DNA of 64,000 nucleotides from NCBI RefSeq assembly GCF_988242995.1, contig NZ_OZ547043.1; one strand, 5' to 3'. Position 1 is the first letter of the stretch; each line of letters begins with the position of its first letter. Shown here in pieces: positions 62,133 through 64,000 of the stretch. The position numbers and the translations under genes were made by a program. The notes beneath the pieces are model-generated. The model was not told the origin of the DNA and did not search any database. It saw only the letters and a list, made by a program, of their open reading frames with translations.

Positions 62133-62366
62133 GTCTCACTCATCATCTCACTCACCAGACTTCATTCCACTGACGCCAGCCTGAACACGGCTGGCGTTTT
62201 CATTTATCTGCAAAAAGGAATATCGATTATGTCTGAAATCACAGTCTCCCGTCCGGAAGTGGTCAACGAGAATACGGACGTTATCTGCTCCACCTCAGTC
62301 AGGTACAGGTCACTGGAATATGATAATTTTCCGGAAATCAGCGAAGCGAACATTCTGAGCACATTT

Positions 62367-64000
62367 GTAAGCGTGCAGCAAGAACCGTATTGACGGGGAT
62401 GTGTTATTCAGTCGGCAGTGCTACGCGCCAGGGGAGCAGTTCGCCGACCCGGTTTATCGGCCAGTCGGCTATGACGTCAAGGACATAGCGGAGGTAGCTT
62501 TCTGGCTCCACTCCGTTCAGTTTGCACGTCCCGATCAGGCTGTACAGCAGCGCTCCCCGCTCTCCTCCATGATCCGAACCGAAGAACAGGTAGTTTTTGC
62601 GGCCCAGACTGACCATCCGCAACGCATTTTCAGCGATGTTATTGTCCGCCTCAGCCCAGCCATCATCTGCATAGTACGTCAGCGCCGGCCACTGGTTCAG
62701 GGCGTATGCGAACGCTTTCGCCAGTTCTGAGTGTCGCGACAGGGTTTTCATCTTTTCACGCAGCCAGCTTTCCAGGGATTTCAGCAGCGGTTTCGTTTTC
62801 AACTGACGTTCGGCAAGGCGCTGCTCCGCCGTCATTCCCCTTATCTCTGCCTCGATGGCGTACAGTTCGCCGATCCGTTTCAGCGCTTCCTCCGTCAGGG
62901 CTGACGGGGTGCGAACGTGCACATCGTGGATTTTACGGCGGGCGTGAGCCCAACAGGCGGCTTCCGTTATCCGGCCATCCCGGTACAGCTCGTTGAACCC
63001 GGCGTATGCATCCGCCTGCAGTACACCACTGAACCCCGCAAGATGGGTCTGCGGATGGATGCCTTTTCTGTCCGGGCTGTAAGCGAACCACACCGCCGGC
63101 GCCAGCGTTGACCCGGCGTTACGGTCGTCACGAACGTAGGTCCATAACCGCCCGGTCTTCGTTTTCTTATTGCCTGGCAACAGCACCGGGACAGGCGTGT
63201 CATCAGCATGGAGCTTACCGTCAGTCAGCACATAGTCCTGAAGCGCTTCTTCCAGCGGTGACAGTAGCCGGCAGCATGCATCCACCCAGCCCGACAGCAG
63301 TGAACGACTCAGCTCCACGCCCTGGCGGCCGTACATTTCAGACTGGCGGTACAGCGGGGTGTGCTCTGCATACTTTGAGATCAGCACGCGGGCCAGCAGC
63401 CCCGGTCCTGCGATACCCCGCTCGATGGGCCGTGAAGGCGCGGGGGCCTGCACGATGGCATCGCACTGAGTACAGGCATGCTTTTCACGTACAGTCCGGA
63501 TAACCCGGAAGGCGCTGCGCATCAGCTCCAGCTGTTCGGCGGCATCCTCACCCAGATAGCTCAGCGAGCCTCCACATTCCGGGCAGCATGACGCTGCCGG
63601 CAGCAGCCGTTTTTCATCGCGGGGGAGTGATTCGGGGAACGGTTTGCGGGTGCGGGTTTGACGCAGCGGGCGCTGCACGGCCGGGTCGTCAACCCGACCG
63701 GTAAGGGTATCACTTTCTTTCTGAAGTGCCTTCAGGTCAGCTTCCATCTGTGCGATACGACGGGAGACTTTTTCCGAGCGGCTGCCGAAGTTCATCCGGC
63801 GCAGCTTATCCAGCTGTGCCTGCAGATGGTCTATTTCGCGTTCACGCTCGTTCAGCTTTTCCAGCAGGGCATGGTTTAGCGCCTCCTGTTCGGCAAGGAG
63901 ACGTTTCAGTGCATTGATATCGTCAGGAAGTGAGCTGCTCATACCGGGTATATTACCAGGCTCATTCAGCGTCGACCAGGATAAAGAGGCTTACAACATA
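62367..64000 (-). mobile_element. IS66-family insertion sequence, copy 2 (truncated by window end)
   Basis: Terminal repeat GTAAGCGTGCAGC at 62367; intact tnpC; only the last codons of orf2 (from 63991) lie inside the window. Confidence 0.85.
62404..63942 (-). CDS. tnpC: IS66-family transposase (TnpC/orf3), full length
   Basis: 512-aa ORF; N-terminal coiled-coil/leucine-zipper region, CxxC zinc-ribbon, conserved ...[11 protein letters not shown]... region. Confidence 0.9.

Follow-up and report, generated by a model that had tools for sequence, protein, structure and literature searches.

Near the end of a 64,000-nucleotide stretch of contig NZ_OZ547043.1 (assembly GCF_988242995.1; hereafter the window), a short open reading frame (ORF) runs into an insertion sequence (IS) of the IS66 family. 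This raises the question whether the ORF is the beginning of an island gene that was cut by the IS, and if so, what became of the rest of that gene. The ORF list and its translation give a peptide of 54 aa that starts with ATG and reads MSEITVSRPEVVNENTDVICSTSVRYRSLEYDNFPEISEANILSTFVSVQQEPY*. The following features meet at the junction:

62229..62393, plus strand: chimeric 54-aa ORF, made of 46 DUF4942 codons, eight IS-repeat codons (VSVQQEPY) and TGA
62229..62366, plus strand: pseudogene, all that is left of an island gene of the DUF4942 family (its 5′ codons 1-46); identical to REL606 WP_001290250.1 at 46/46 aa and 138/138 nt
62359..62366, no strand: target sequence of the insertion, 8 bp, GCACATTT; sole copy left in this lineage
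62367..64000, minus strand: IS66-family element, ISEc22-like, cut by the window end; full length 2453 bp, which would end at window-equivalent position 64819
62367..62388, plus strand: terminal inverted repeat at the tnpC-proximal IS end, starting with GTAAGCG
62404..63942, minus strand: tnpC, IS66 DDE transposase of 512 aa (Pfam DDE_Tnp_IS66, zf-IS66, LZ_Tnp_IS66), convergent with the truncated gene

The first-pass annotation of this locus quoted the peptide exactly as translated. Its start of the IS66 terminal repeat at 62367 coincides with the IS end GTAAGCGTGCAGCAAGAACCG (chance expectation 0), and its stop 25 nt inside the element agrees with the TGA at IS nucleotides 25-27. Three of its numbers had to be corrected. 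Position 62221, given as the ATG, reads 'tat' and lies 8 nt before the true ATG at 62229; the end including the stop is 62393, 1 nt beyond the 62392 reported; and 46 residues, not 48, precede the IS.

The identity of the interrupted gene follows from its intact counterpart in E. coli B REL606, a protein of 189 aa (WP_001290250.1) whose first 46 residues are the same as those of the stub. This intact homologue matches PF13708 (DUF4942) over residues 27-184 with E=9e-55 and 185.7 bits, against a gathering cut-off of 25. Neither the 54-aa ORF nor its 46-aa pre-IS part gave a match in the Pfam search, including to PF13708, and the ORF is therefore to be regarded as a remnant of a DUF4942 member, not as a member itself. 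Its assignment rests on colinear identity and genomic position: 46/46 aa, zero mismatches to REL606 in the 345 nt of 62022-62366, and a shared DUF957 neighbour. In REL606 the gene occupies the same place: it closes a tRNA-Phe island, follows DUF5983 and DUF957, and shares its upstream hairpin and start context with the stub. The window differs in retaining 46 of the 189 codons and in adding a tail of eight residues read from the IS. Only 20 of the ~158 domain residues are left (27-46 of 27-184), and hence the stub is a pseudogene. The search of the N-terminal fragment against island proteins, which had been proposed as a check, thus yielded a complete match to a DUF4942 protein.

The gene order around the stub is widespread. 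The 437 bp upstream of the IS matched 3822 of 5426 complete E. coli genomes at ≥80% length, and the features annotated at those matches are 'DUF957', then 'DUF4942 domain-containing protein'. In many E. coli pheV and pheU islands the intact 189-aa DUF4942 gene is the terminal gene, 3′ of DUF957. In the window, the interval upstream of the stub contains:

61935..62132, plus strand: DUF957 gene, the conserved upstream neighbour of DUF4942, placed by the ORF list and by gene order in other genomes
62172..62198, plus strand: terminator-like hairpin between DUF957 and the DUF4942 start, a consensus match with a 10-bp stem, seven G-C pairs and a T-rich tail

A consensus scan ahead of the stub gave no matching sigma-70-like promoter. 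With regard to function, no model in NCBIfam or PADLOC matched DUF4942, a sequence search of the PDB for a solved relative gave a chance-level match only (E=0.56), and the mentions of DUF4942 found in the literature were all in tables. In one such table (PMC6980539), L0010 of the O157:H7 LEE-adjacent element and orf56 of the Shigella SRL island are listed as its equivalents.

Could the ORF have arisen by chance, or be a small gene in its own right with no relation to any interrupted gene? A length of 54 aa is by itself unremarkable, because 67 ORFs of 30 aa or more reach into 58000-64000, and this abundance of short ORFs would suit such a reading, as would the lack of any Pfam, NCBIfam or PADLOC match to the fragment alone. 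We nevertheless count the ORF as real, since its 46 pre-IS residues are all identical to the N-terminus of the intact DUF4942 protein. That intact family member was found on at least 999 contigs, the same gene order recurs in thousands of genomes, and the point of divergence coincides to the base with the start of the IS terminal repeat. The alignment of the 46 residues to the intact protein refutes a chance or independent origin, to which we assign a negligible probability. The exact 54-aa ORF occurs on 220 public contigs, and a variant with three changed residues on another 115, in both cases labelled 'hypothetical protein'. The label of the ORF should be pseudogene fragment instead of hypothetical protein, as it stands in several public records; beyond correct annotation, the stub is of very little importance. 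The 90% cluster of the 54-aa ORF (P0007) also lists an ABC-2-type membrane protein of 520 aa; we rejected it as a relative, since it is an unrelated protein and its placement a database clustering artefact.

The IS itself could be characterized over its full length on a public contig. We looked up contigs that carry the exact 353-aa ORF at 59899..60960 to reach beyond the window, which ends inside the IS. One of these, L004 (GCA_958328545.1), shows no mismatch to the 14,102 bp of window positions 49899-64000 and runs 7 kb further. Within the window only tnpC is present, and tnpB and tnpA were taken from this identical contig. The IS genes matched DDE_Tnp_IS66, TnpB_IS66 and HTH_Tnp_1 in Pfam, and scored 467 bits for transpos_IS66 (cut-off 180), 112 for IS66_TnpB (50) and 82.7 for IS66_ISRel24_TnpA (74) in NCBIfam; all three genes of an IS66 element (tnpA, tnpB, tnpC) were found. 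The far IS end in L004 reads ...CGGTGCTGAGACGACGCTTAC, and imperfect terminal inverted repeats of the GTAAGCG type, which are typical of the IS66 family, are present at both ends. Over all 1634 bp available, the window element is 100% identical to a copy in O166:H15 strain JNE070796 that is annotated as ISEc22 family. ISEc22 is listed in PMC5001619 (Table 2) as an IS66-family element of 2454 bp. The window element shares with ISEc22 the order tnpA-tnpB-tnpC, the GTAAGCG termini and a near-equal length (2453 bp here), and RefSeq gives the window-identical transposase the name 'ISEc22 family'; it differs in that the copy in the window has no 8-bp duplication.

The IS inserted between codons 46 and 47 of DUF4942, at the target GCACATTT. 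The 8-bp target duplication was not found in L004 or L002 (JNE070796), where GCACATTT precedes the element and ATAATTTT follows it. The missing duplication points to a secondary deletion or recombination rather than to a different kind of element.

We then compared the near junction with other genomes, using a 451-bp probe. Among the 5426 E. coli genomes, 33 complete genomes matched at least 80% of the probe, of which 17 had 100% identity and three, all avian strains, 99.8%; the other 13 were less similar (ten listed at 98.7%). In APEC IMT5155 (L282_RS29470 / L282_RS12540) the IS lies between two copies of the 8-bp sequence GCACATTT, and the gene resumes right behind it with the C-terminal 143 codons (…TFEQLHQNKDE… to the stop). 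This junction is a classic example of an IS66-family insertion: the element separates codon 46 from codon 47 and has duplicated 8 bp of its target. Together with the intact genes at the same position in other genomes, it bears out the earlier proposal that an IS66 element had inserted into a pre-existing island gene. The insertion point, the orientation and the first ~870 bp of the IS are the same as in the window. In contrast to the window, IMT5155 carries an IS of a 2442-bp type, has retained the duplication, the C-terminal 143 codons and an attR-like repeat, and has its island at a different chromosomal tRNA-Phe site, pheU, beside cadC.

The closest annotated equivalent is the RefSeq pseudogene ACZ5LK_RS16785 of JNE070796, described as 'DUF4942 domain-containing protein; incomplete; missing C-terminus', which adjoins an 'IS66-like element ISEc22 family transposase'. 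With this pseudogene annotation in public genomes, the feature is ordinary and already known. The junction of JNE070796 is 100% identical to that of the window over 451 bp, with the same far flank and the same kpsF neighbour, whereas identity to the window drops to ~95% in its island upstream of ~62020; different island variants thus carry one junction. The high identity beside the junction was considered as a sign of a recently shared tract, and this was rejected, as the IS-free REL606 is equally identical over 62022-62366.

What lies beyond the IS decides the fate of the remainder. In L004, ATAATTTTTACG... comes right after the complete 2453-bp IS, and from there it is 785 bp to the start of kpsF. 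The far IS end reads ...GACGACGCTTAC, then ATAATTTTTACGTTCAAG..., in L004, in three independent assemblies (L005-L007) and in L002; in all of these the far flank begins with ATAATTTT and there is no duplication. Searches with tblastn found neither the DUF4942 C-terminus nor the attR-like repeat in L004 and L002, and found both in REL606 (L001) and IMT5155 (L003). The C-terminus was also absent from the rest of the window in a tblastn search, for example beside IS66 copy 1, where an inversion between the two IS copies could have placed it. In the alignment to REL606, the far flank begins to match at L001 position 4409, and the insertion point lies at 3437|3438, so that 971 bp are missing; the coordinates of strain 7/2 give the same 971-bp spacing. 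The missing segment comprises DUF4942 codons 47-189, the attR-like pheV repeat and a 183-bp remnant of an IS110-family transposase. Furthermore, the far junction was found in 25 complete genomes, and all 25 also carry the near junction ~2448 bp away; hence the deleted state is the only ISEc22 state sampled.

These results speak against a simple insertion, in which the IS would only split the gene, and the C-terminal 143 codons and a second GCACATTT would lie right after its far end. That model predicts GCACATTT, then GAACAACTGCACCAG... (codon 47 onward) after the IS, with an expected read-on of GCACATTTGAACAACTG. It describes the exact state of APEC IMT5155, DE17 and VTB96815v at the pheU island. 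Yet the IS of those strains is the different 2442-bp type, which diverges after ~63235 (145 mismatches), whereas the IS in the window is 100% identical to ISEc22-type copies, and all of these with the far flank read (L002, L004-L007) are without the remainder. Moreover, the spacing of ~2448 bp in the 25 far-junction genomes leaves no room for it. A synthetic junction for a simple ISEc22 insertion (ISEc22 end, GCACATTT and C-terminus) had no match to ≥80% of the query among the 5426 complete genomes. We consider a simple insertion in the window barely credible. As read from the identical public contig, the rest of the DUF4942 gene has evidently been deleted in this lineage. Hence, the ORF is in our assessment a non-functional 5′ stub of a DUF4942 gene that underwent a subsequent 971-bp deletion in this lineage (probability about 0.9).

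The first-pass annotation had expected the remainder beyond the far end of the IS, which does not hold in L004: there the IS abuts the kpsF upstream region, with no C-terminus and no duplication. It had also named two findings that would speak against its reading, a frame that does not continue beyond the IS and an N-terminal fragment with no homologue anywhere. The frame indeed does not continue in L004, whereas DUF4942 homologues are common.

How the deletion arose can be framed as a choice between two routes. The route that we favour, at about even odds, is recombination between two IS66 copies. An IS66-family copy would have sat in DUF4942 at the target GCACATTT, and a second copy, an ISEc22 in direct orientation, would have inserted upstream of kpsF at the target ATAATTTT (...CTCCATAATTTT|GTAAGCG). 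At the kpsF-upstream site, this route expects the junction GTTGCTCCATAATTTTGTAAGCG, an IS66 end flanked by a duplication of its own. Homologous recombination with a crossover in the ~870 bp that are identical between the two IS types would then produce one complete ISEc22 without duplication, with everything between the copies lost and the IS adjoining the kps capsule cluster. The observed IS types provide suitable partners. The 2442-bp IS of IMT5155 is a genuine mobile IS, with full-length 100% copies at many chromosomal and plasmid sites. Counted from the tnpC-proximal end, its first ~870 bp equal those of the window IS (window 62367-63235 vs L003 7218-8086, a shared 100% segment); beyond, identity is ~80%, and the IMT5155 IS switches to 99-100% identity with the type of IS66 copy 1 in the window. 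A shared ~870-bp segment in two widely distributed IS66-family elements indicates, as far as sequence comparison can tell, past recombination between family members. In strain UID2309220009 (L011 6062-8500), an ISEc8 has entered the IS110 remnant in the same orientation, with an intact DUF4942 on one side and kpsF on the other, so IS66-family elements do land in the deleted interval in this orientation. Such elements appear to have landed repeatedly at the boundary between the pheV island and kps.

The other route starts from a single ISEc22 insertion, followed by an IS-mediated adjacent deletion in which its tnpA-proximal end would have moved by intramolecular transposition into a site 971 bp away, with no second IS involved and an expected junction GACGACGCTTACGCACATTTGAACAAC. 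An IS that is complete to the last repeat base and abuts new DNA without duplication is the classical signature of such an event. In addition, a synthetic junction for the two-IS intermediate (kpsF-upstream site, ATAATTTT and IS end) had no match to ≥80% of the query among the 5426 complete genomes. The simple ISEc22 insertion with duplication, from which an adjacent deletion would have started, was not found at the site either, and as neither predicted ancestral junction occurs among complete genomes, both routes are proposals. The only duplication-bearing insertion at the exact nucleotide is of a different IS type that shares the proximal ~870 bp, and an adjacent deletion therefore needs two independent insertions at one base. 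Two such IS66-family insertions at the same nucleotide, marking a target hot spot, are conceivable, and we regard adjacent deletion as possible, at less than even odds. If only one insertion at this nucleotide is to be assumed, recombination between two IS66 copies would be the simplest history.

The deletion also affected the island as a whole. Its left boundary (attL) is formed by the following tRNA gene:

38647..38722, plus strand: pheV tRNA-Phe, island left boundary (attL)

A 421-aa ORF at 38920-40185 lies 3′ of the tRNA-Phe and is a putative integrase by its position. In REL606, an attR-like 22-nt copy of the pheV 3′ end, TTCGATTCCGAGTCCGGCACCA, lies at L001 3980-4001; in both REL606 and IMT5155 it is found 110 bp past DUF4942. 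A search for copies of the tRNA 3′ end, TTCGATTCCGAGTCCGGGCACCA, gave one in the window, which is the tRNA itself, and none in L004 or L002. Hence, the right boundary of the pheV island, including attR, was erased by the IS66-associated deletion, and therefore predictors of island boundaries that depend on direct repeats will fail here. Judged from its sequence, an island without attR can probably no longer be excised by an integrase through attL x attR recombination, and it would have become fixed next to the kps cluster after the loss of attR. One could go further and suppose that this loss locked the pheV island to the kps capsule cluster, so that both are inherited and exchanged as one block. 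We regard this as very improbable; if true, it could explain why the same junction occurs on two diverged island backgrounds. In a weaker variant, the chimeric 54-aa peptide, or read-out transcription from the IS, could have gained a role.

The right end of the pheV-inserted island consists of a CP4-like module with DUF4942 last, in the order DUF932, antirestriction, RadC/JAB, DUF987, CbeA, CbtA, DUF5983, DUF957, DUF4942. Among the 5426 complete E. coli genomes, the best match of this island end was 97.2%, and window positions 1-6000, a cmtA-yggP-glpX-fumE core, had 100% matches. As a whole, the island spans 38647-62366 (~23.6 kb) and contains the tRNA-Phe, the 421-aa ORF in integrase position, a defective IS66 copy (copy 1), a GTPase, an Ag43/AIDA-type autotransporter (973 aa), YeeR, IrmA, DUF905 and DUF932, and then the CP4-like module.

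IS66 copy 1 (window 40978-43266) is of a different IS66-family type and ~85% identical to copy 2, the copy at the stub. It has an internal deletion of ~148 bp and a tnpC shortened to 461 aa. With the 2442-bp IS of IMT5155 it shares 99-100% identity over the corresponding ~1570 bp at the tnpA-proximal end. Its flanks, CTTTATAT and CACTATTT, are not a target duplication, so copy 1 has also been rearranged.

The 353-aa ORF at 59899..60960 that served to find the longer contigs has a C-terminal CbeA/YeeU antitoxin domain, and the exact protein occurs on 14 contigs. In REL606 and O166:H15, a pseudogene with a frameshift ('antitoxin of TA stability system') stands at the same position, followed by a separate 122-aa YeeU gene. 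Apparently the 353-aa ORF either arose by in-frame fusion or represents a longer ancestral form.
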